Below, in pieces: positions 9,275-18,397 of a stretch of DNA of 64,000 nt. The notes beneath the pieces are model-generated. The model saw only the letters and a program-made list of their open reading frames with translations, made no database searches and had not been told where the DNA came from. Position 1 is the first letter of the stretch. Each line of letters begins with the position of its first letter. Origin of the DNA: Vulcanimicrobiota bacterium (GTDB taxonomy: Bacteria; Vulcanimicrobiota; Xenobia; Xenobiales; JADMJV01); contig JBFWNU010000001.1 in the NCBI GenBank assembly GCA_050250895.1, forward strand, positions 648,008-712,007. Reading direction: 5' to 3'. Made by a program: the position numbers and the translations under genes.

Positions 9275-10459
9275 TTGATCAGAGGAACCTGCTTGAGGTT
9301 CGAAGTGGACTGGATTTCCCTTTTGTCACGCCGCCCCCGCCTCCAAGACTGCCTGGAGGAAGTCCTCTCTGTCTCGCCCCCCCGGGGCCGGCCAGATCTG
9401 GCCATCGTCTTTGCCACCTCGGCCTTTCGGGATGACTTTGCCCTGATCGGCCAGGTGCAAGACCGACTGGGAGCGCCGGTCATGATCGGCTGCTCGGCCG
9501 ACGGTGTCATCGGCGCCGGACTCGAAATCGAGGGTGGCCCGGCTCTGAGCTTGAACCTGGGCTGGTTGCCCGGTGCCGAAGTGCGTAGCTTCCGGGTGGC
9601 CGACGGCAGCAACCTTCCCGGTCCCGACGATCCCCCCGAAGCCTGGCAAGACATGATCGGATTCGACCGCTCCGCCTCTCAAATCTTGTTGGTCGACCCC
9701 TTCTCGGACTTCATCTCCCATCTCTTATCGGGCCTCGACTTTGCCTTTCCCCGGGCGGTTCGCATCGGCGGCCTGGCCAGTGGAGCCCGCCAACCCGACG
9801 AAGTGGCCCTCTTCCTTGACGGCGACATCTGTCGCAACGGGGCCATCGGAGTGTCTCTGTCGGGACTGTCCATCAACTCGCTGGTAGCCCAGGGTTGCCG
9901 CCCCGTGGGCGCGCCCATGGTGATCACCGGATGCCAGGATACCAACGTCTATGAACTCGACCATCGCCCCGCCCTGCAACTACTGGCCTCGACCGTCGCA
10001 GCCCTTTCGCCCGATGACCGACTTTTGGCTCGCCACTCTCTCTTCGTGGGCCTGGCTACCGAGAGCCTGAGTTCGATCACGCCCGAAGACTTCCTCATTC
10101 GCAACATTCTCGGGGTTCATGCGCCCAGCGAGAGCATCGGCATTGCCGCCCCGACCCGACGCGGACAGATCCTGCAATTCCATCTCCGCGATGCCCGGGC
10201 CTCGACCCTCGATCTCGAGCGCGCTTTCTCGGGGCTGCAGCCCGAGAGCCTCAGCCAGGCCCGAGGGGCGCTGCTCTTTTCCTGTCTTGGTCGCGGTCAA
10301 GGTCTGTACGGACTGGCCAACCACGAATCCAACCTCTTCACCAGAATCATGCCCGATGTCCCGCTGGGTGGCTTTTTCTGCAACGGCGAGATCGGCCAGA
10401 TCGGCGGCTCGACCTACGTCCACGGATACACTTCATGTTTCGGTATCTTGTCCAACTGA
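9275..10459 (+). CDS. FIST N/C domain protein
   Basis: Motifs IGCSADGVIG, GGLASG, VAQGCRPVG, FSCLGRG, GFFCNGEIG and HGYT. Confidence 0.9.
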   Translation: MIRGTCLRFEVDWISLLSRRPRLQDCLEEVLSVSPPRGRPDLAIVFATSAFRDDFALIGQVQDRLGAPVMIGCSADGVIGAGLEIEGGPALSLNLGWLPGAEVRSFRVADGSNLPGPDDPPEAWQDMIGFDRSASQILLVDPFSDFISHLLSGLDFAFPRAVRIGGLASGARQPDEVALFLDGDICRNGAIGVSLSGLSINSLVAQGCRPVGAPMVITGCQDTNVYELDHRPALQLLASTVAALSPDDRLLARHSLFVGLATESLSSITPEDFLIRNILGVHAPSESIGIAAPTRRGQILQFHLRDARASTLDLERAFSGLQPESLSQARGALLFSCLGRGQGLYGLANHESNLFTRIMPDVPLGGFFCNGEIGQIGGSTYVHGYTSCFGILSN

Positions 10460-11439
10460 GTCTGCTGGCCTTGTTGGCCTGCTCGTCCCCACCCCATCCC
10501 ACGCCGTCAGCGGTGGCCACCACGCCCGTCAGGCCCGACCCTACTCCCCAGGCCACCCTGGCCCCGCCCGGCTTGAAGGTCGAGGTTCAGGGACCAGGGC
10601 AGGTCCTGGTCGAGTATTCCGGGGGACGTCTGGTCCGCAGCCTGACGCCGCTCGACTTTCCCAATCCACCCGCCACCGAACTCGAAGGCCCCAGCCCCTA
10701 TCTCGACCGGGAGGTCGCCTCGGGGGTGACCTATCAATATTCGCTCATCGACGGCGACCGGGTGCTCGAGAGTAGTCAGGTCCAGGTCCCGGCCACGTCC
10801 CTTCCGGCCTTGACCCACCCCCGGCTGGTGGTCGACAAAATCCACTACACGCTCTCGGTCTTCGACGGTCCCCAGCGGGTCAAACGCTATCCCTTCGTCA
10901 TGGGCGGAAAACCCCGCCAGCGCAAGCTCTGTCGCGACAATGCCTCCACGCCCGAGGGCATCTACACCATCTACAATCTGCAGCCTCAGGCCACCTTCTA
11001 TCGGGCCTACGACATCGACTATCCCAACCGGATCGACCACTTCCGTTACGGCTTTGCTCGGCGACACCTCGGCCTGGACGACCCCGGCATCGGTGGCGAG
11101 ATCCAGATCCACGGCTGTGGCCTCAACGGCAACTGGACGGCCGGCTGTATGGCCCTGCGCAACGCCGATATGGACGAGTTGTTCGCTCAGCCAGCTCTGG
11201 CCGCCGGCACCAGAGTCTGGATTACAGGCCACGAACTATCGCTGGCCGATCTCGAGGGCCTTTCCCAGGAGCAAAATCCCCAGCTGGTGCGCCAGCTGCA
11301 GAAAAAACTCGGACTCGAGCCCGACGGCCAGATGGGCCGGGCCACCCGCGAGGCCCTGGGACTCTATCAAAAGAAAGAGGGCTGGCCGGTCACGTGTCAG
11401 CTCGACCGCCGCAGCGCCGAGCGCTTGCTCAACCCCTAG
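10435..11439 (+). CDS. L,D-transpeptidase family lipoprotein with C-terminal peptidoglycan-binding domain
   Basis: Lipobox LLAC, TPEGIY, and catalytic IQIHG...WTAGC. C-terminal LQKKLGLEPDGQMGRAT. Confidence 0.85.
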   Translation: MFRYLVQLSLLALLACSSPPHPTPSAVATTPVRPDPTPQATLAPPGLKVEVQGPGQVLVEYSGGRLVRSLTPLDFPNPPATELEGPSPYLDREVASGVTYQYSLIDGDRVLESSQVQVPATSLPALTHPRLVVDKIHYTLSVFDGPQRVKRYPFVMGGKPRQRKLCRDNASTPEGIYTIYNLQPQATFYRAYDIDYPNRIDHFRYGFARRHLGLDDPGIGGEIQIHGCGLNGNWTAGCMALRNADMDELFAQPALAAGTRVWITGHELSLADLEGLSQEQNPQLVRQLQKKLGLEPDGQMGRATREALGLYQKKEGWPVTCQLDRRSAERLLNP

Positions 11440-12686
11440 ACCGTAACGTCCCAGCGCACCAGCTCGTGGTCGCTGCCCCCACCCTCGACCCTGTGCCGTC
11501 CCGAGGCCTGACTGCCGTGGCTGGTGTAAATCCGGTCGATCGAGTTGTCCGCATCGGGGTCGCTCCATCCCAGCGAGTCGGCTGAAGGATAGTGATGAAC
11601 GGGATTGTCCGGCAGCAGACCGCGCCAGCGAAAGTCGAGGTACCTTCCACCCGCCTTCGAATTGAAGTCACCCGCCACGATCGTGTGGTCGCCATAACCT
11701 TCGACGATATCTCCCAGGGTTTGATACTGGGTCACCCGGGCCTGTTGGTCGGCTTCGTCGCCGCCCGAGGTGAAGTGCGTACTGACGAAAGTCGCCTCTT
11801 GCCCACCGGCCTCGAAGCCCACCGCCAGAGCGGTGCGGTTCTCGTTGTCGGGGTCGTTGGCGCCGAGGTCGTGGCGACGCAGGCTGCCGGGCTCGATCTC
11901 GCCCTGGGCGTCGCGGCGCAACTGCGCCTCGGGACCCAGCAGCACGGCGTTGCCATAGGTGCCTGCGCCCGAATGGGCCAGGGACGAGCCAAAGACCACG
12001 GTGTAGTCGGTCTGCGCCCCGTCTTTTTCGATTTCGGCCGAGTAGACGGTGATGGGAGTGTCATTGCTGTCGTCAAAGGCTCGCCGGCCATTCTCGAGAT
12101 AGGGTTGACCGTGCTCGTCGTAACTCTCTTTGCTAACCACCAGGCTGGCACCGTTACTCTCATAGACGACGTGATCCGCGCCCTGGGCGACCCGCTCCAC
12201 CACCTGCTGCTCGCGGTGGTCGCCGAAGTCGGCCTCATACTGGGTGCGGTCATAGCGGACCGGGTCGTAGACGCGGTGGCCCTGCTCATCGACCACGGGT
12301 TGGCCGTGCTCGTCGAGACTGAACTTATCCACCGACTCAGCTTCGCTCCAGTTTGGCCCACTCTCGGCCCGAAAGACGTCCTTGAGGACCTCTTCATTGT
12401 AGTCCTGGCGGCCCGTGCGTTCCGCCCCCACGTCGACCTCTTGAAAAGCCACGACATCGAGACCCCCGCCGGTCACCTGCTCGGACACCTGCCGGGTAGT
12501 CTCGTCAAAGTGTTGGCGAGCCCCGGCGTTGCCGGCGCCCAGGTTGTAGGTGCCCACCTGGAGCCGGGCCGGCGGCGAGACCTCGGCCCGGTCGGCCGCA
12601 ACGGCTGCAGCGGGCCCCGGCGCCGGCTTGGGGTGTTTAGCCAGTCTGGTTTCGGCCCGGACCGGGCCAGCCTCTCGAATCAACAC
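11436..12686 (-). CDS. Endonuclease/exonuclease/phosphatase (EEP) family protein with large insertion
   Basis: Motifs VGTYNL, VAFQEVD, YGNAVL, STHF, IVAGDFN, IDRIY and SDH. Confidence 0.85.
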   Translation of the reverse strand: MLIREAGPVRAETRLAKHPKPAPGPAAAVAADRAEVSPPARLQVGTYNLGAGNAGARQHFDETTRQVSEQVTGGGLDVVAFQEVDVGAERTGRQDYNEEVLKDVFRAESGPNWSEAESVDKFSLDEHGQPVVDEQGHRVYDPVRYDRTQYEADFGDHREQQVVERVAQGADHVVYESNGASLVVSKESYDEHGQPYLENGRRAFDDSNDTPITVYSAEIEKDGAQTDYTVVFGSSLAHSGAGTYGNAVLLGPEAQLRRDAQGEIEPGSLRRHDLGANDPDNENRTALAVGFEAGGQEATFVSTHFTSGGDEADQQARVTQYQTLGDIVEGYGDHTIVAGDFNSKAGGRYLDFRWRGLLPDNPVHHYPSADSLGWSDPDADNSIDRIYTSHGSQASGRHRVEGGGSDHELVRWDVTV

Positions 12687-12857
12687 GCTTGCATTCTAAA
12701 GGCTCTGACCTGCCCAACGGCTGCCCAGATGGTGTCGACGTGAACAGCTCATTGCCGAAGCGTTAACTGGGGCGGGAAGAAGAGTGGGCGAGGGCGAAGG
12801 AATAAGATGTACGACTTGACGACGGGACTAGCCAAGTGATTCACAGGGGAGGTAGTT

Positions 12858-13886
12858 TTGAAGGTCTGCCTGGTTCTCACCCACCAATGCAATCTCGGTT
12901 GTAGCTACTGTTACGCGGGCGAAAAGTTCAAACGCACGATGAGCTACGAGTCGGGCCTCAAGAGTCTCGCTCTGGCTTTCTCGAAGGAAGGGCCTGTCGA
13001 AGTCTCGTTTTTTGGCGGCGAACCGATGATCGCCTTCGCTCAGATGGCCGCCCTCACCCGGGTGGCCCGCCGCTGGGCCGACCGCGCCGGTCGCCAACTG
13101 CGCTTCGCGGTCACCACCAATGCCACGATCCTCAACGAAAAGCACCTCAATTTCTTGCGCGACTACAACTTCTTTGTCGGCATTTCGGTGGACGGCGTCG
13201 AGGAAGAGCATGATCGCCATCGCCCCTTCGTGGGGGGACGAGGCTCCGGCGACCTGGTCTGGCGCAATCTCGAACGGGCCGCCCACTATCTCGACGATTT
13301 TCGGGTCTTGATGGTGGTCCGCCCCGACACCGTGGCCCGCCTGCCCGAAGCCATCGAGCGAATGTACCGCCTGGGCGTCTCGAAGGTTTCGCTCTTGCCC
13401 GAAACCGAAGCCGATTGGAGCGAGTCGCGCCATCTTCTCTCGGACGTCTACCAGCAACTGGCCCGTGTCTGCTACTTCTCGATGATGACCGACGAGCCCA
13501 TGTATATCAGCCCCTTCGCCGAACTGCATCCTCACCTTCGCAGCAACGGCAACGGCGGCGGTCGTGGTGGCTGCAACTTCGGCCGCGACGAGGTGGCCGT
13601 CTCGCCCGCCGGCAACTTCTACCCCTGCGCCCGTCTGGTCGGCCCCGATACTCGCCCCGAGGTGCGCATCGGCAATCTGGAGAACGGCTTTGACCTGGCC
13701 CGCATCGAAGAGCTCAACAGCTGTTCTGAGGCCAGCCTCTCCAAGTGCGGCAGCGGAGGCTGCAAGTGCCTGGCCCTGATGCCGGGCGATGTCGACTATC
13801 AGCTGGTCAACGTCAAGATGTTCACGGACGTCACCGGTGAGGCGTGCCGCGCCGCCGCAGCCTGCCTCGAAGAGGTGGCCGCGTGA
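12858..13886 (+). CDS. Radical SAM/SPASM(-twitch) enzyme, anSME-like; probable peptide/protein maturase
   Basis: CNLGCSYC (CxxxCxxC), FFGGEP, TTNAT and ISVDG. SPASM-type C-x12-G-x4-C (CNFGRDEVAVSPAGNFYPC) followed by further Cys. TTG start after a GGGGAGG RBS. Confidence 0.93.
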   Translation: MKVCLVLTHQCNLGCSYCYAGEKFKRTMSYESGLKSLALAFSKEGPVEVSFFGGEPMIAFAQMAALTRVARRWADRAGRQLRFAVTTNATILNEKHLNFLRDYNFFVGISVDGVEEEHDRHRPFVGGRGSGDLVWRNLERAAHYLDDFRVLMVVRPDTVARLPEAIERMYRLGVSKVSLLPETEADWSESRHLLSDVYQQLARVCYFSMMTDEPMYISPFAELHPHLRSNGNGGGRGGCNFGRDEVAVSPAGNFYPCARLVGPDTRPEVRIGNLENGFDLARIEELNSCSEASLSKCGSGGCKCLALMPGDVDYQLVNVKMFTDVTGEACRAAAACLEEVAA

Positions 13887-14209
13887 GCGAAGACAAAATC
13901 AAAAGGCGCCGCTTCCTGGCTGACGTGCTATTCGCTGGCGGCGGGCTGACCGCGGCTGCTTTCCTGGCCAAGGCCGGCTTTGACCGCGACCAACCCGACC
14001 AACTGCCCGGAGCGGTGGCCGTGCCCAACGACGGCCAAACGCCGACCTGCGAAGAGACCCCGAGCTGTGCGCCCACCCCCGACGATCCCAGCCTGGGCGG
14101 CGAACCGATGCCCCCCGAGCCCCCCATGCCCGGCCAAATGGCCCTGCCCCAGCAACCGCCCGAGGTCATCCCCGATGGTGACGTAGCCGCCCCCAGGGAG
14201 TGCAAATGA
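13883..14209 (+). CDS. Precursor/substrate paralogue P1 (twin-arginine leader + Pro-rich core), 108 aa
   Basis: GTG start overlaps the rSAM TGA (GTGA). Leader MSEDKIKRRRFLADVLFAGGGLTAAAFLAKA. Confidence 0.88.
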   Translation: MSEDKIKRRRFLADVLFAGGGLTAAAFLAKAGFDRDQPDQLPGAVAVPNDGQTPTCEETPSCAPTPDDPSLGGEPMPPEPPMPGQMALPQQPPEVIPDGDVAAPRECK

Positions 14210-14559
14210 GCGACGACAAGATCAAGAGACGCCGATTTCTAGCAGATGTGCTCTTCGCTGGCGGCGGACTGACGGCAGCGGCTTTTCTGGCCAAAGCCGG
14301 CCTGGACCGTCACGAGCCCAACCCCGGCGTAGCCGGCGACATGAAAATGCCCCAACCCGCCAACACTCCGGTGGCCTCGCCCACCTGCGAAGACCCCGAG
14401 ATCGAGGGCGACGTAGCCCTGCCCGAACCCGAGCAGACCCCCTGCGAAAAGCCGCCCCTCACGCCCCAAGACGAGCCCAACGTGGCCGGCGGCATGCGCC
14501 CGCCCCAACCCCCACCCGAGGCACTGCCCGGCCGAGTCGCCGTGCCCCGTGACCAATGA
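14206..14559 (+). CDS. Precursor/substrate paralogue P2, 117 aa
   Basis: ATGA overlap with the P1 stop and an AGGGAG RBS. Leader MSDDKIKRRRFLADVLFAGGGLTAAAFLAKA. Confidence 0.88.
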   Translation: MSDDKIKRRRFLADVLFAGGGLTAAAFLAKAGLDRHEPNPGVAGDMKMPQPANTPVASPTCEDPEIEGDVALPEPEQTPCEKPPLTPQDEPNVAGGMRPPQPPPEALPGRVAVPRDQ

Positions 14560-14891
14560 TGAGCAAAGGCAAGACTCGGCGCCGACGCTTTCTCGCCGAT
14601 CTGCTCTTTGCCGGCGGGACACTCACTGCCGTGGCCTTTCTGGCCAAGGTCGGGGGGACCGTCGACCCACCCACCCCGGCGGGACTGGCCGCAAAGCCCG
14701 CCGCCTCGCCGTCCTTCCAAGAGTGCCCCGAGACTCCAGCCCTGGAGACGCGGGAACCCATCCCGGGCCCCGGAGACCAGGGCACCATCAAAGTTGGCGG
14801 CATGGTCAAGCTGCCGCGCCAAACTGGCAAGGAAGTTCTTCCTGCTAATATCACAAGCAAGCCGGTGACAAGAAGCTATGAGCGAAGATAA
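14556..14891 (+). CDS. Precursor/substrate paralogue P3 (most divergent), 111 aa
   Basis: ATGA overlap with the P2 stop. Leader MMSKGKTRRRRFLADLLFAGGTLTAVAFLAKV. Confidence 0.82.
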   Translation: MMSKGKTRRRRFLADLLFAGGTLTAVAFLAKVGGTVDPPTPAGLAAKPAASPSFQECPETPALETREPIPGPGDQGTIKVGGMVKLPRQTGKEVLPANITSKPVTRSYERR

Positions 14892-15207
14892 GATCAAAAG
14901 GCGCAGATTTCTGGCCGACGTGCTGTTCGCGGGCGGTGGCCTGACGGCCGCAGCCTTTCTGGCCAAAGCCCAGTTCGGCCAACCCGACCCGCCCCTCGTC
15001 AAGCCATCGCCGCGGGAAACCCCCACTTGCGCCCACCCCCCCGAGCCAGACCTCCGGGTCAAAGGCGAGGTGGCGCCACCCCAACCAGCACCGCCAACCC
15101 AGCCCGAGCCGGCTGTGCCCGGCAAAATGAAAGCCCCCAACCCCAGGCCGATCGAGCTTCAGCTCGAGGGCGAGGTAGAGATGCCTGAACCGAGGGAGTG
15201 CAAATGA
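14878..15207 (+). CDS. Precursor/substrate paralogue P4, 109 aa
   Basis: Leader identical in amino acid sequence to P1. Overlaps the end of P3. Confidence 0.88.
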   Translation: MSEDKIKRRRFLADVLFAGGGLTAAAFLAKAQFGQPDPPLVKPSPRETPTCAHPPEPDLRVKGEVAPPQPAPPTQPEPAVPGKMKAPNPRPIELQLEGEVEMPEPRECK

Positions 15208-15527
15208 GCGAAGACAAGATCAAACGCCGCCGATTTCTAGCCGACATCCTGTTCGCCGGTGGAGGCCTGACGGCCGCGGCCTTTCTGGCCAAAGCCCAGT
15301 TCGGCCAAACCTCGCCGACCGACGTGCCTCAAACCTGCGAGACTCCCACCAGCTGCCAATCGCCCGACATCGACGGCAACGCCGTCCCCCCCGTCGAACC
15401 CCACCCCGCCGGCGCCGTCGCGCCCCCTCAGCCCGAAGAGCCCCAACTCGAGGGCAAGGTCGCCCAACCCGTCCAGATCAAAGGCGACGTGGCCGTGCCC
15501 GATGACAGGCTAGAGGGACGACGGTAG
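15204..15527 (+). CDS. Precursor/substrate paralogue P5, 107 aa
   Basis: ATGA overlap with the P4 stop. Leader MSEDKIKRRRFLADILFAGGGLTAAAFLAKA. Confidence 0.88.
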   Translation: MSEDKIKRRRFLADILFAGGGLTAAAFLAKAQFGQTSPTDVPQTCETPTSCQSPDIDGNAVPPVEPHPAGAVAPPQPEEPQLEGKVAQPVQIKGDVAVPDDRLEGRR

Positions 15528-15561
15528 ACGGTAGACGGTAGACGGTAGACGGTAGACGGTA
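15520..15561 (+). repeat. Tandem heptamer repeat (GACGGTA)x6
   Basis: Six perfect copies read directly. The P5 stop codon spans the junction of the first two units. Confidence 0.95.
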
Positions 15562-15693
15562 GAGAGCCGCATCTCGCTGCCGGCTCGCTGCCGGCTCTCT
15601 CCTGTTTCCCTGACGGCGCCCGGGCCCGCCCACTCGAAGCTGGTGAGTTCCCCTCTCGACGGCGAAGCCGCCCAGAATGACGACGCGAAGCGT

Positions 15694-15995
15694 CGAGTAC
15701 CTCAAAACTCGAGGTGAGCCCAGCGAACCTCGCTCCCCTCTCGCTGGCGAGCGCAAGCGAAGCCAGCGCTCCCCTCTCCGGGCGCAGCCCGGCTCCTCTC
15801 TCGCGAGCAAAGCGAGCGCTCCCTTCTCGACGGCGAAGCCGTCGCGAGTACCTCAAAACTCGAGGTGAGCCCAGCGAACCTCGCTCCCTTCTCGCTGGCG
15901 AGCGCAAGCGAAGCCAGCGCTCCCCTCTCCGGGCGCAGCCCGGCTCCTCTCTCGCGAGCAAAGCGAGCGCTCCCTTCTCGACGGCGAAGCCGTCG
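15694..15995. repeat. Tandem direct repeat, 2 x 151 bp, built from small hairpins joined by CTCCYYTCT linkers
   Basis: Units 15694-15844 and 15845-15995 differ at one position. A partial copy lies at about 15650-15670. Confidence 0.92.
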
Positions 15996-15999
15996 CCCG

Positions 16000-16977
16000 C
16001 TAGGCGGTGGCTACGAAGGAGGGAGCGCGGCCGAAGCTCTTGCGATAGCGATCGGCGAACTCATCACGGGTGTAGCTGTGATTCTGGGTGCCGTACTTCT
16101 CCACCACGTAAGCGGCGGCCACGCTGCCCATGCGTCCACATTCGGCCAACTCGCAGCCCGCGACCAGGCCAGCTACGAATCCGCCGCGATAGGCGTCGCC
16201 CGCGCCGGTGGGGTCGACCGCTTTCGAGATCACGCAGGGCGGGACCTCGATGGCCGTCTCGCCTTTGCGCAGAATGCGACTGCCTTTCTCGCCCAGGGTC
16301 ACCACCAGCATGTCCATCTGGTCGAGCAATTGCTCGGTGGTGCGACCGGTCTTCTCTTGGAAGACCGAGAACTCGTAGTCGTTGAGAATCATAGCGTGGG
16401 CGCCCAGAGCGCCTTCGAGCAAGGGTCCGCCCTCCATGGCCGTGACCTGGAAGGAGGGGTCGTAAATCAGCGGGATGCCGGCCTCTTTCGCCTCGCGGCA
16501 GTGACGCAGCATGGCTTCAGGATCGTCAGGGGCGACGATCAGCAGGGCCGGCGAGGGGCCGGCCGAGGCTTTGACACTGATGTTCTTGGAGTGGGGCATG
16601 GCGCCCACATAGAAGCCGGTAATCTGGTTGTTGGCCCGGTCGGTGGTGATGTAGCAGGTGGCCGTGATCTCGTCTTCGACTCGCAGGATGGCCGAGGTGT
16701 CGACCCCGTTCTTCTCGAGGAAGTCGGCGTAGGTGTCGAAATCGTTGCCGGCCGCCGCGATAATGCGGGGGTGGCGACCCAGAAGGGACAGGGTGTAGGC
16801 GATGTTGGCTGCACAGCCGCCCCGCTGCTTGGTGACCTTGTCCACCAGAAAAGAGATGTTGATCATGTGCAGCTTCTCGGGCAGGATGTGCTCCTTGAAG
16901 TAGCCGGGAAAGGACATGATGTTGTCAAAGGCCAGCGAGCCTGCTACCAGGATCTGGCCCTCCATCGTTTTGGCCAC
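16000..16977 (-). CDS. PfkB-family carbohydrate/adenosine kinase
   Basis: Motifs GSLAFD, GGCAANIAY, LNDYE, VTLGEKGS and DPTGAGDAYRGG. GTG start after AAGGAGG. Confidence 0.92.
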   Translation of the reverse strand: MAKTMEGQILVAGSLAFDNIMSFPGYFKEHILPEKLHMINISFLVDKVTKQRGGCAANIAYTLSLLGRHPRIIAAAGNDFDTYADFLEKNGVDTSAILRVEDEITATCYITTDRANNQITGFYVGAMPHSKNISVKASAGPSPALLIVAPDDPEAMLRHCREAKEAGIPLIYDPSFQVTAMEGGPLLEGALGAHAMILNDYEFSVFQEKTGRTTEQLLDQMDMLVVTLGEKGSRILRKGETAIEVPPCVISKAVDPTGAGDAYRGGFVAGLVAGCELAECGRMGSVAAAYVVEKYGTQNHSYTRDEFADRYRKSFGRAPSFVATA

Positions 16978-16990
16978 GGTATTGCCTCCT

Positions 16991-18397
16991 TCAGGGCGTC
17001 GCCGCCGCAGTGGGACTCGCGGCCGGCGTCTCGTTCTTGGAGTAGAGCGGCGCGACGATTCCGCGCCACTCTTCCAGGGGATTGCCCGACGCATTGTAGA
17101 CAGGCTTGGCGCCGTTGTCAACTTGAGTGCTTCCATCCCGGAAAGCTCCCAGGCGAACGTGGCCCAGACTCTTGCCCGACTTGTCGAAAAACTCCAGGTC
17201 GGCGACAGGCTCCTTCAGTTCCGCCGTTTGAGGCAAAGATTCCTCCCAACGAAGGTCCTTGATCTTCCAGAGCAGATCGGTCACTTCGGCGCCGTTATCG
17301 GAGTGGGCCGGCTCGCTGACCTTCCAGCCACCGCTGGTGCGTTTGGCTTCGAGCTTGTAGTCGCCGAGATGCCCGGTGACTTTCTCGACGTTTTCGACCT
17401 CGAAGTCGACCAGGTGGCGCTCTTGGAACTCGTGCACTTCGGGGTGCAGCAATTTGGCCGCTTTGTCACCGAGCTCGACCACCATGGCTTCTTCAGGGTC
17501 GAGTCGGCGGACATAGTACATTCCCGGTTTGACGGCCACCTCCGGACCGATTTCCATCACGAAGGGGCGGGGGTTGTCCTCGAGGGTGGCCTCGACTCGC
17601 AGCCACGGATGGTCCCATTTGACCTTCTCGTCGGGGCCGAGAAAACGTCCACCGGAGAGAGACTTGAGTGCCCAGATGTAATCGTTGACCTGCTGGCGAT
17701 CGGCGGGTGCTTTGATGGGCTCGACCAGCGAGAACTCGACCAGCGGTTCCGGCTCGTCTTCATCCTTCTTCTCGTCTTTGGTTTCGGGCTTTTTGCCGTC
17801 AATCACCAGGGTGTTTGTCGGAGTCACCAGCTTGAGCTTTCTCACCTGGGCCGGAATCACCGGCATCGGACTCTTTTCGCGCAGCGCTTCGATGTCTTGC
17901 TCGAGAGTCTGGCCGAAGGCGCCAGCCACCATATAGATAGGTCCGCTGCCGCCCACCTGAGCATAAAAATTCTGGCCGTCAGGCGTGCGCGAGCCCAGCA
18001 CCAGGTCGTATTCGGCTCCGTCTTCGACATGCAACTTGAGACGATAGCTGGGCTGGTCGAGCCCAAACTCGGCCAAATCCTCGGGCTTGGGGGTCTCGAT
18101 GATCACCTTCTCGTGAGAGAGTTGGCCCAGGTCGTTGGCCAACTGATCCAGCTGGGCTGCGCTGAGCAGCTGCTGACCGAAGAGCCAGCGACCGTCATGA
18201 CGTTCGAAGACCAGCTTCTTGTCGGCTTCTTTAGCTTCGACTTCGAGACGGTCCACCTGGTTCTCTTCGACTTTGGCGAACAGGCGCTTGGCTAGAGCCT
18301 CTTTCTCGGCCTCGTCGGCCTTGTGCTTGGTCGACCAGACATAGAAGCCGGCCAGCCCGATGACCAGCACCAGCATAATCACAGTTGAACGGTTCAT
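16991..18397 (-). CDS. DUF4340 domain protein (Gld-type ABC accessory)
   Basis: N-terminal TM and LAEFGLDQP motif. Last member of the GldA/F/G-like operon. Confidence 0.75.
   Translation of the reverse strand: MNRSTVIMLVLVIGLAGFYVWSTKHKADEAEKEALAKRLFAKVEENQVDRLEVEAKEADKKLVFERHDGRWLFGQQLLSAAQLDQLANDLGQLSHEKVIIETPKPEDLAEFGLDQPSYRLKLHVEDGAEYDLVLGSRTPDGQNFYAQVGGSGPIYMVAGAFGQTLEQDIEALREKSPMPVIPAQVRKLKLVTPTNTLVIDGKKPETKDEKKDEDEPEPLVEFSLVEPIKAPADRQQVNDYIWALKSLSGGRFLGPDEKVKWDHPWLRVEATLEDNPRPFVMEIGPEVAVKPGMYYVRRLDPEEAMVVELGDKAAKLLHPEVHEFQERHLVDFEVENVEKVTGHLGDYKLEAKRTSGGWKVSEPAHSDNGAEVTDLLWKIKDLRWEESLPQTAELKEPVADLEFFDKSGKSLGHVRLGAFRDGSTQVDNGAKPVYNASGNPLEEWRGIVAPLYSKNETPAASPTAAATP

Follow-up and report, generated by a model that had tools for sequence, protein, structure and literature searches.

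The window analysed here is a 64,000-nucleotide (nt) stretch of a Vulcanimicrobiota bacterium genome (class Xenobia; assembly GCA_050250895.1, contig JBFWNU010000001.1, positions 648,008 to 712,007). It carries a gene for a radical S-adenosylmethionine (SAM) peptide maturase, followed directly by five genes for small proline-rich proteins (P1-P5). Each protein consists of a near-identical N-terminal leader and a variable core, and the cores carry a repeated motif, h-x-G-x-(V/M/A)-x-x-P (h: hydrophobic residue). P1-P5 are very probably substrates of the adjacent enzyme, because the genes are translationally coupled, their adjacency is conserved, enzyme and peptides co-occur across genomes and a co-fold of the two passed. 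That the G-x4-P repeats are the sites which the enzyme binds and modifies stands, in our judgement, at about even chances.

Motif counts were compared with composition-preserving shuffles. The strict form of the motif (G.[VMA]..P) occurs 17 times in the five window cores, against a mean of 1.20 (standard deviation 1.06, maximum 7), and none of 20,000 shuffles reached 17. The looser G....P occurs 22 times against 6.8 expected and starts at 22 of the 33 core glycines. When a hydrophobic residue or Pro was also required at position -2, 16 copies remained, against 0.53 expected. An earlier sequence-only reading had proposed such a motif and had placed most core glycines in a G-x4-P context, and both statements were borne out. 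Sixteen of the 18 octamers that it listed fit the strict pattern; LGGEPMPP and QTGKEVLP fit G....P only, and GTVDPP in P3 had been left off the list.

Since the pattern had been picked after inspection, all residue pairs at distances 1-8 were scanned and the pattern was applied to unseen sequences. In the window, the top pair was G-x4-P (22 against 6.7, z 7.0); in the relatives, the same scan ranked L-x-G, G-x4-P and G-x-V first (z 16.1, 12.1 and 11.9, respectively). Of 63 candidate cores from other genomes and metagenomes, 16 were set aside as too similar, and the 47 non-redundant ones contain the strict motif 76 times against 11.7 expected (0 of 5,000 shuffles). In 127 cores drawn from 135 further representatives of 50%-identity clusters, the strict motif was found 202 times against 31.4 (0 of 2,000 shuffles). 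The enrichment is thus also seen outside the window. G....P occurs at least once in 121 of the 127 cores and at least twice in 103.

The fuller consensus is (E)-P-x-[LVI]-x-G-[DEK]-[VMP]-[AV]-x-P-[QE]-P. Position +2 is occupied by V (75), M (33), P (32), A (11) or Y (8), and copies are mostly spaced 11-14 residues start to start. Aromatic residues are scarce: F, W, Y and H together account for 3.1% of the cores. The motif is kept in clades whose enzymes are only 42-51% identical to that of the window and whose leaders differ, for example as MPGQMxxP after YTRRRFLTDLLFVGG. The cores had been described as otherwise unalignable; this was not upheld, as orthologous cores align along their whole length, with the spacers as their least conserved parts.

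The enzyme gene (12858..13886, + strand, 342 aa, TTG start) and the peptide genes, all on the + strand, are arranged as follows. P1 (13883..14209, 108 aa; leader at nt 13883-13975) has a GTG start inside the enzyme's TGA stop (GTGA overlap). It carries LPGAVAVP (14003-14026), LGGEPMPP (14093-14116, loose), MPGQMALP (14126-14149) and PDGDVAAP (14171-14194), with Cys at residues 56, 62 and 107 (nt 14048, 14066 and 14201). P2 (14206..14559, 117 aa; leader at 14206-14298) carries VAGDMKMP (14329-14352), IEGDVALP (14401-14424), VAGGMRPP (14482-14505) and LPGRVAVP (14524-14547), with Cys at residues 61 and 80 (nt 14386 and 14443). P3 (14559..14891, 110 aa; leader at 14559-14651; alternative ATG at 14556) is the most divergent paralog, its leader differing at 8 positions. 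It carries PAGLAAKP (14676-14699), VGGMVKLP (14793-14816) and QTGKEVLP (14820-14843, loose), as well as the above-mentioned GTVDPP straight after the leader, with Cys at residue 56 (nt 14724). P4 (14878..15207, 109 aa; leader at 14878-14970) carries VKGEVAPP (15058-15081), VPGKMKAP (15115-15138) and LEGEVEMP (15163-15186), with Cys at residues 51 and 108 (nt 15028 and 15199). P5 (15204..15527, 107 aa; leader at 15204-15296) carries IDGNAVPP (15369-15392), PAGAVAPP (15405-15428), LEGKVAQP (15447-15470) and IKGDVAVP (15477-15500), with Cys at residues 45 and 51 (nt 15336 and 15354). The starts of P2, P3 and P5 form ATGA overlaps with the preceding stop, and P4 overlaps the 3' end of P3 by 14 nt. 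Because starts and stops overlap in this way, the enzyme gene and P1-P5 form one translationally coupled unit. The tails after the leader are 76-86 residues long and hold 13-22 prolines each; P1 and P4 share the C-terminal end PRECK.

The pairing of enzyme and peptides was followed across 401 sampled genomes of the phylum. The peptide family was found in 18 of these, including 12 of 15 genomes of the window's family and 4 of 5 of a sister family; a search of 19 small-genome relatives within the order gave no match. The enzyme (E <= 1e-50) is likewise present in 18 genomes, and 16 have both. One enzyme-only genome encodes a divergent-leader peptide full of the motif (L067), and in the other the match is cut by a contig end; the two peptide-only genomes are a 65% complete genome and one with a weak match (E 4.7e-4). 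Of the 20 fetched loci, 12 have an enzyme homolog (42-77% identity) immediately upstream of the peptide genes, which number 1-7. Across 13 loci, the only conserved genes are the enzyme and the peptides, and no protease or transporter is conserved near the enzyme. Conserved leader, variable cores, adjacency and co-occurrence together are the features of a precursor/maturase pair like those of ribosomally synthesised peptides with post-translational modifications (RiPPs).

The same neighbourhood might be mere synteny, the small proteins being ordinary membrane-anchored or secreted proline-rich envelope proteins while the enzyme acts elsewhere. Orphan genes fit this view: the window's genome has three divergent peptide members without an adjacent enzyme (and only one enzyme of this family), four clear orphans are found elsewhere, and the peptides match no protein family (P1-P5: no Pfam or NCBIfam family even at E <= 10). 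The neighbours of the three members (an ABC permease, a TPR protein and an ABC-F ATPase) show no visible link. We consider this view highly improbable given the overlapping start and stop codons, the adjacency kept while all other neighbours change, the co-occurrence in 16 genomes, the co-fold described below (0.89 against 0.23) and the enzyme's relatives, which are peptide maturases. Two weak profile rows for the peptides, QcrA_N (E 0.15) and CU044_5270 (E 0.005, 16.7 bits against a cutoff of 100), were disregarded.

The peptide family comprises more than 200 sequence clusters and is confined, as far as searched, to large-genome Eremiobacterota (Xenobia). All enzymes of at least 41% identity are assigned by named records to Vulcanimicrobiota/Eremiobacterota, class Xenobia; a few of them bear evidently mislabelled titles of metagenome-assembled genomes (MAGs). 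Around more distant enzyme relatives (<=38% identity; other phyla), none of 60 loci, 11 of which were inspected by eye, had a leader-like open reading frame (ORF) within 2.5 kb downstream. One such relative (33% identity, Deltaproteobacteria MAG; L100, 5141-5920) is followed by a 259-aa Ala/Pro-rich ORF that has LGGAPVAP and no such leader; this may be chance. In two cases (L058/L071 on G082:C11, and L040/L072 on the same contig), two paralogous enzymes, about 43% and 70% identical to that of the window, each have their own peptide type, one with the YTRRRFLTDLLFVGG leader and MPGQMxxP-like motifs and the other of the window's type. Extra ORFs that cluster with the enzyme in loci L047 and L051 matched no NCBIfam family.

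P1-P5 open with a near-identical 31-residue stretch, MSEDKIKRRRFLADVLFAGGGLTAAAFLAKA (consensus form MSEDKIKRRRFLADxLFAGGGLTAAAFLAKA). A hidden Markov model of this leader, searched against 134,347 ORFs of the window's genome, matched only 8 small proline-rich proteins (next E 0.15), and the 150 listed library relatives are all 69-194 aa long. The leader is therefore a mark of the family and not a general signal of the lineage. Over 300 pairwise codon comparisons, the leader codons of P1-P5 show 132 synonymous and 38 non-synonymous differences; as synonymous changes dominate, the leader sequence is held by purifying selection and not by gene conversion.

The leader has the form of a twin-arginine translocation (Tat) signal or signal-anchor, as judged from its residues. 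Tat signals follow the rule R-R-x-F-L and then an uncharged stretch. In the leader, R8, R9, F11 and L12 of R-R-x-F-L (x variable) are invariant in 28 of 28 sequences and are followed by VLFAGGGLTAAAFLA, 15 uncharged residues rich in Gly, Ala and Thr. TatC is encoded in the window's genome (213.9 bits). The leader thus has RR-x-F-L, an uncharged stretch of at least 13 residues and a genomic TatC, and a relative at locus L067 passes the Tat-signal model TIGR01409 (18.9 bits against a cutoff of 16.7). Atlas feature matches to Tat-signal clusters (0.83-0.85) and structure matches (TM below 0.5) were taken as leads only.

The enzyme matches Pfam Radical_SAM (PF04055) with 68.5 bits against a gathering threshold of 29.5, which places it in the superfamily; Fer4_12 was also matched. 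Its CxxxCxxC motif (C11/C15/C18) is unchanged in all 16 sequences of a family alignment, whose members share 42-77% identity with the enzyme of the window. In the C-terminal domain of this alignment, the only invariant Cys are C239, C257, C297, C302 and C304. These five suffice for one fully Cys-ligated auxiliary cluster and one spare Cys; they are too few for a canonical SPASM domain with its two clusters. The enzyme has neither the seven- or eight-Cys SPASM motif nor a match to Pfam SPASM (PF13186) at E <= 0.01, though its fold resembles SPASM/Twitch enzymes.

The best NCBIfam match is the PapB family (NF047865), which scored 186.6 bits, below its cutoff of 340, and was covered over model positions 5-306 of 330. 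It is followed by nif11-type, CcpM, QhpD and SCIFF maturases, all far below their cutoffs. The PapB, nif11-type, CcpM, QhpD and SCIFF/CteB families include known Cys-thioether formers. By sequence, the closest solved structure is CteB (5wgg, E 2.6e-24), and the AlphaFold model of the enzyme (pLDDT 80.4) gave CteB, anSME and ChlB as top Foldseek matches. The enzyme begins 10 residues before its cluster motif, RRE-bearing family profiles (RRE: RiPP recognition element) align only from their positions 77-113 onward, and CteB aligns only from its residue 99. For these reasons, the N-terminal PqqD-like RRE, the usual leader-binding domain, is absent from the enzyme. This absence, that of a full SPASM Cys set, the Tat-signal-like N-terminus and the usual single Cys of the cores (see below) did not figure in the sequence-only reading.

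For docking, the enzyme and P4 were co-folded, each with its own alignment, with SAM and two clusters riding along (three runs and three controls). The runs scored 0.89, 0.89 and 0.87 and the best control 0.23; the mark for this score was reached by 58 of 80 solved complexes and by 2 of 110 mismatched pairs. The runs share at least 67% of contacts, and the partner pLDDT is at least 51. In the predicted complex, leader residues 1, 5, 8-10, 12-13, 16-17 and 19 contact enzyme helices around 163-173 and 200-223. P4 residues 94-106, LQLEGEVEMPEPR, which contain the third motif (LEGEVEMP), lie in the catalytic cleft, where they touch barrel-top residues 50-52, 84-86 and 106-108 beside the SAM-binding motifs. 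P103, the +5 Pro of this motif, lies against the C297-C302 loop, and neither Cys51 nor Cys108 of P4 is among the confident contacts. The model supports binding of P4 by the enzyme through the leader and the third motif. A co-fold with the radical SAM enzyme had been suggested as a check on the motif, and for P4 its outcome was favourable.

The predicted position of the motif also bears on another view, in which the motifs are processing or recognition signals at which a general protease splits the precursor into short products, the enzyme modifying residues between the motifs. Several evenly spaced copies are what such signals would look like, and multi-core precursors are known in other peptide natural products. 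We regard this as very unlikely: the motif itself occupies the cleft, the spacers are the least conserved parts of the cores, and the 13 loci hold no conserved protease near the enzyme.

We infer that the motif is the modified site and propose the following course. P1-P5 would be paralogous precursor peptides of the enzyme encoded directly upstream. Their 31-residue N-terminus would serve as a docking helix for the enzyme, replacing the usual leader-RRE interaction, and the proline-rich tail would present 3-4 copies of h-x-G-x-(V/M)-x-x-P. Each copy would be threaded in turn over the SAM site while the C297-C304 cluster loop holds its invariant +5 Pro, and the 5'-deoxyadenosyl radical would abstract a hydrogen somewhere between residues -2 and +4. 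The first candidate target would be the +2 Val/Met (epimerisation, or a C-beta or other C-H reaction) and the second the Gly C-alpha; hydrogen abstraction at the Gly C-alpha and epimerisation of the +2 Val/Met are guesses. The modified peptide may then be exported, or inserted as an N-terminally anchored protein, through the general Tat (or Sec) machinery.

A number of observations weigh against this reading. G....P is missing from 6 of the 127 cores, and the form with a hydrophobic residue at -2 from 34. In the ortholog comparison, conservation reached 139 of 160 at motif positions against 184 of 236 in spacers (p 0.025), a modest gain only. P0001, a metagenome protein with 95% identity to P4, is changed at four positions of the first motif. 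In the co-fold, the enzyme interface is no more conserved than the rest of the enzyme (15 of 55 against 87 of 342 residues at >=90%), and the alignments and riding ligands differ from those of the calibration. Because solved radical SAM-leader complexes exist (CteB, SuiB, ChlB), part of the pass may also be likeness to these. In eight of the 20 fetched loci, no enzyme lies within about 6 kb of the peptide genes. Neither TIGR01409 nor Pfam TAT_signal (PF10518) was matched by P1-P5, even at E <= 10, and an invariant Asp within the stretch speaks against Tat. An AxA-type leader end is found in only 51 of the 127 sequences, so that an uncleaved signal-anchor and a cleaved signal are equally likely. 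To these is added the Cys count of the cores: exactly one Cys is present in 88 of 135 cores, against 48.7 +/- 5.6 by random placement (0 of 5,000); the window's own cores have 1-3 each.

The changes in P0001 were also considered by themselves. Of the five positions at which it differs from P4, four fall together in the first motif (VKGEVAPPQ in P4, GQGEGAPPH in P0001), where Gly replaces both hydrophobic positions. The protein is either a strain variant that has lost one motif or an assembly error.

The preference for a single Cys is also what would be expected if the enzyme were a thioether synthase of the ranthipeptide/sactipeptide type, which links this Cys to a carbon of another residue and leaves G-x4-P unmodified. 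The repeat would then have its function in the mature peptide after export, for example as short strands for binding to a partner or to the cell envelope. The sequence-only reading had named partner binding as an alternative role of the motif, and that role fits here, with the enzyme acting on the single Cys. The closest relatives of the enzyme (PapB by NCBIfam, followed by the maturases listed above, and CteB by structure) point the same way, every enzyme-linked array seen encodes at least one Cys-bearing peptide, and variable spacing between Cys and acceptor is tolerated by PapB according to PMC9413430. On the other side, 23 of the 127 cores are Cys-free, including the first gene after the enzyme in loci L044 and L051. 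The Cys context is barely conserved (at most 0.39 bits at any position around 142 Cys, with Arg not enriched at +4), and its position varies, before the first motif in 53 cases and after it in 47. The PapB cutoff was missed, only five C-terminal Cys are conserved, and in the co-fold the active site is occupied by a motif and by neither Cys51 nor Cys108. Thioether formation at the single Cys is thus possible and, on balance, rather unlikely. The earlier proposal that the motif copies are repeated modification sites agrees with the co-fold, which places one copy, and neither Cys, in the cleft. The further idea of a combinatorial library found no support.

Two more specific Cys arrangements were rejected. 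A fixed Cys-motif cross-link was discarded as a general feature: no offset dominates, although a small peak is seen where the Cys precedes the motif Gly by six residues (13 against 4.7). Lipobox and sulfatase-type Cys contexts were discarded because the Cys lies at least 13 residues past the hydrophobic stretch in an unconstrained context.

The system was compared with known radical SAM systems. PapB, which acts on PapA (freyrasin), is the best-scoring named family and has a similar arrangement: a single radical SAM maturase is paired with a precursor in which a short motif recurs several times, and the copies are handled after leader binding (PMC9413430). In the same source, PapB is expected to use an RRE for leader binding and to contain two or more auxiliary clusters. 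The PapB motif is Cys-X3-Asp/Glu. The window's repeat, by contrast, as a rule has neither residue, its cores have 0-3 Cys, mostly one, so that repeated Cys-X3-Asp/Glu is not seen, and its enzyme has no RRE and only the five conserved C-terminal Cys. CteB, the SCIFF (thermocellin) thioether synthase (5wgg/5why), is also the closest by fold (Foldseek E 5e-18, TM 0.71); its leader-binding N-terminal domain is missing in the window's enzyme, and identity is 22%. CteB substrates are Cys-rich.

Short RRE-less enzymes offer other parallels. The anaerobic sulfatase-maturating enzyme (anSME; 4k36-4k39), of about 370 aa, is a top fold match. Its substrates are proteins with an export signal, on which it acts while they are in the cytoplasm, at a short motif that contains Pro; the target is Cys or Ser in C/S-x-P-x-R (C/S-x-P/A-x-R). 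No such context surrounds the Cys of the window's family, and the NCBIfam score is 84.7 against a cutoff of 349. The triceptide (three-residue cyclophane) systems (GrrM/OscB, FxsB, YhhB, AmcB, ChlB) gave weak profile matches, and ChlB a fold match. The maturases of these systems, about 360 aa long, lack an RRE, and a cluster encodes several precursors in which a very short motif recurs many times. This motif, however, needs an aromatic residue, which the low aromatic content of the cores does not provide for each copy, and scores were far below the cutoffs. The epipeptide epimerase EpeE/YydG (8ai1-8ai6), a further RRE-less radical SAM enzyme among the fold matches, converts Val/Ile to the D-form with a non-cluster Cys as hydrogen donor. 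The match is distant (TM 0.45-0.49), with no sequence match at the thresholds used. The five-Cys pattern would allow a four-Cys cluster and a free Cys; that a Cys acts as hydrogen donor here is pure conjecture.

For the leader, the parallel lies with Tat signals and the chaperones that bind them in TorD/DmsD-type proofreading. The leader shares with Tat signals the invariant R-R-x-F-L and a weakly hydrophobic Gly/Ala/Thr stretch, and it is likewise predicted to be bound by a cytoplasmic protein. It differs in that the window peptides match no Tat profile and that the predicted binder is the modifying enzyme itself.

The surroundings of the array were also annotated. Upstream lie a YkuD L,D-transpeptidase with a peptidoglycan-binding domain (10435-11439, +) and an endonuclease/exonuclease/phosphatase-family protein (11436-12686, -), neither of which is kept beside the enzyme in other genomes. 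Directly after P5, and overlapping its stop, is a perfect 7-nt tandem repeat, (GACGGTA) x 6.3 (15520-15563). It is followed at 15694-15996 by two copies of a 151-nt unit (99% identity) with internal 25-nt sub-repeats. The repeats after P5 are also matched by contigs of RNA libraries from another context. The ORF of a PfkB-family kinase (16000-17136, -) matches its family only from residue 87-97; its listed start is probably too far upstream, the excess part overlapping the repeat region. An Rfam scan of 12400-16200 gave no match, and a promoter/terminator scan found nothing above shuffles. In one RNA run, 6% of sampled words were present and contigs cover parts of the enzyme gene, with DNA carry-over possible. 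A 449-nt RNA contig with 28 differences (from a relative), for which DNA carry-over is likewise possible, spans the 3' end of the enzyme gene into the first leader.

Radical SAM peptide maturases are a main source of new peptide chemistry. To our knowledge, almost all characterised maturases target Cys or aromatic residues and recognise their leader by means of an RRE. The array described here is a radical SAM peptide-modification system whose leader type and target motif are new and whose enzyme is reduced. Searches of open-access papers and bioRxiv yielded no description of the family, or of radical SAM substrates that bear a Tat signal.

A bolder form of the proposal is that these would be the first radical SAM-modified peptides to leave the cell via Tat. 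The maturase would bind the twin-arginine signal as its leader, in the manner of Tat proofreading, and hold the peptide until all G-x4-P copies are modified. The chemistry would be of a new kind, because the target motif is without aromatic residues and Cys; examples would be epimerisation in series and C-H functionalisation, either at the +2 Val/Met or at the Gly C-alpha. Proline-rich peptides that resist proteases would result, to be displayed on the Xenobia cell envelope or released from it. We hold this form to be unlikely. What sets the family apart is the combination of a Gly-Val/Met-Pro repeat, an RRE-less enzyme with a reduced Cys set and a Tat-like leader. As a two-part system of one enzyme and small substrates is easy to reconstitute, its chemistry is directly testable, and so is the idea of an export signal that doubles as a docking site.

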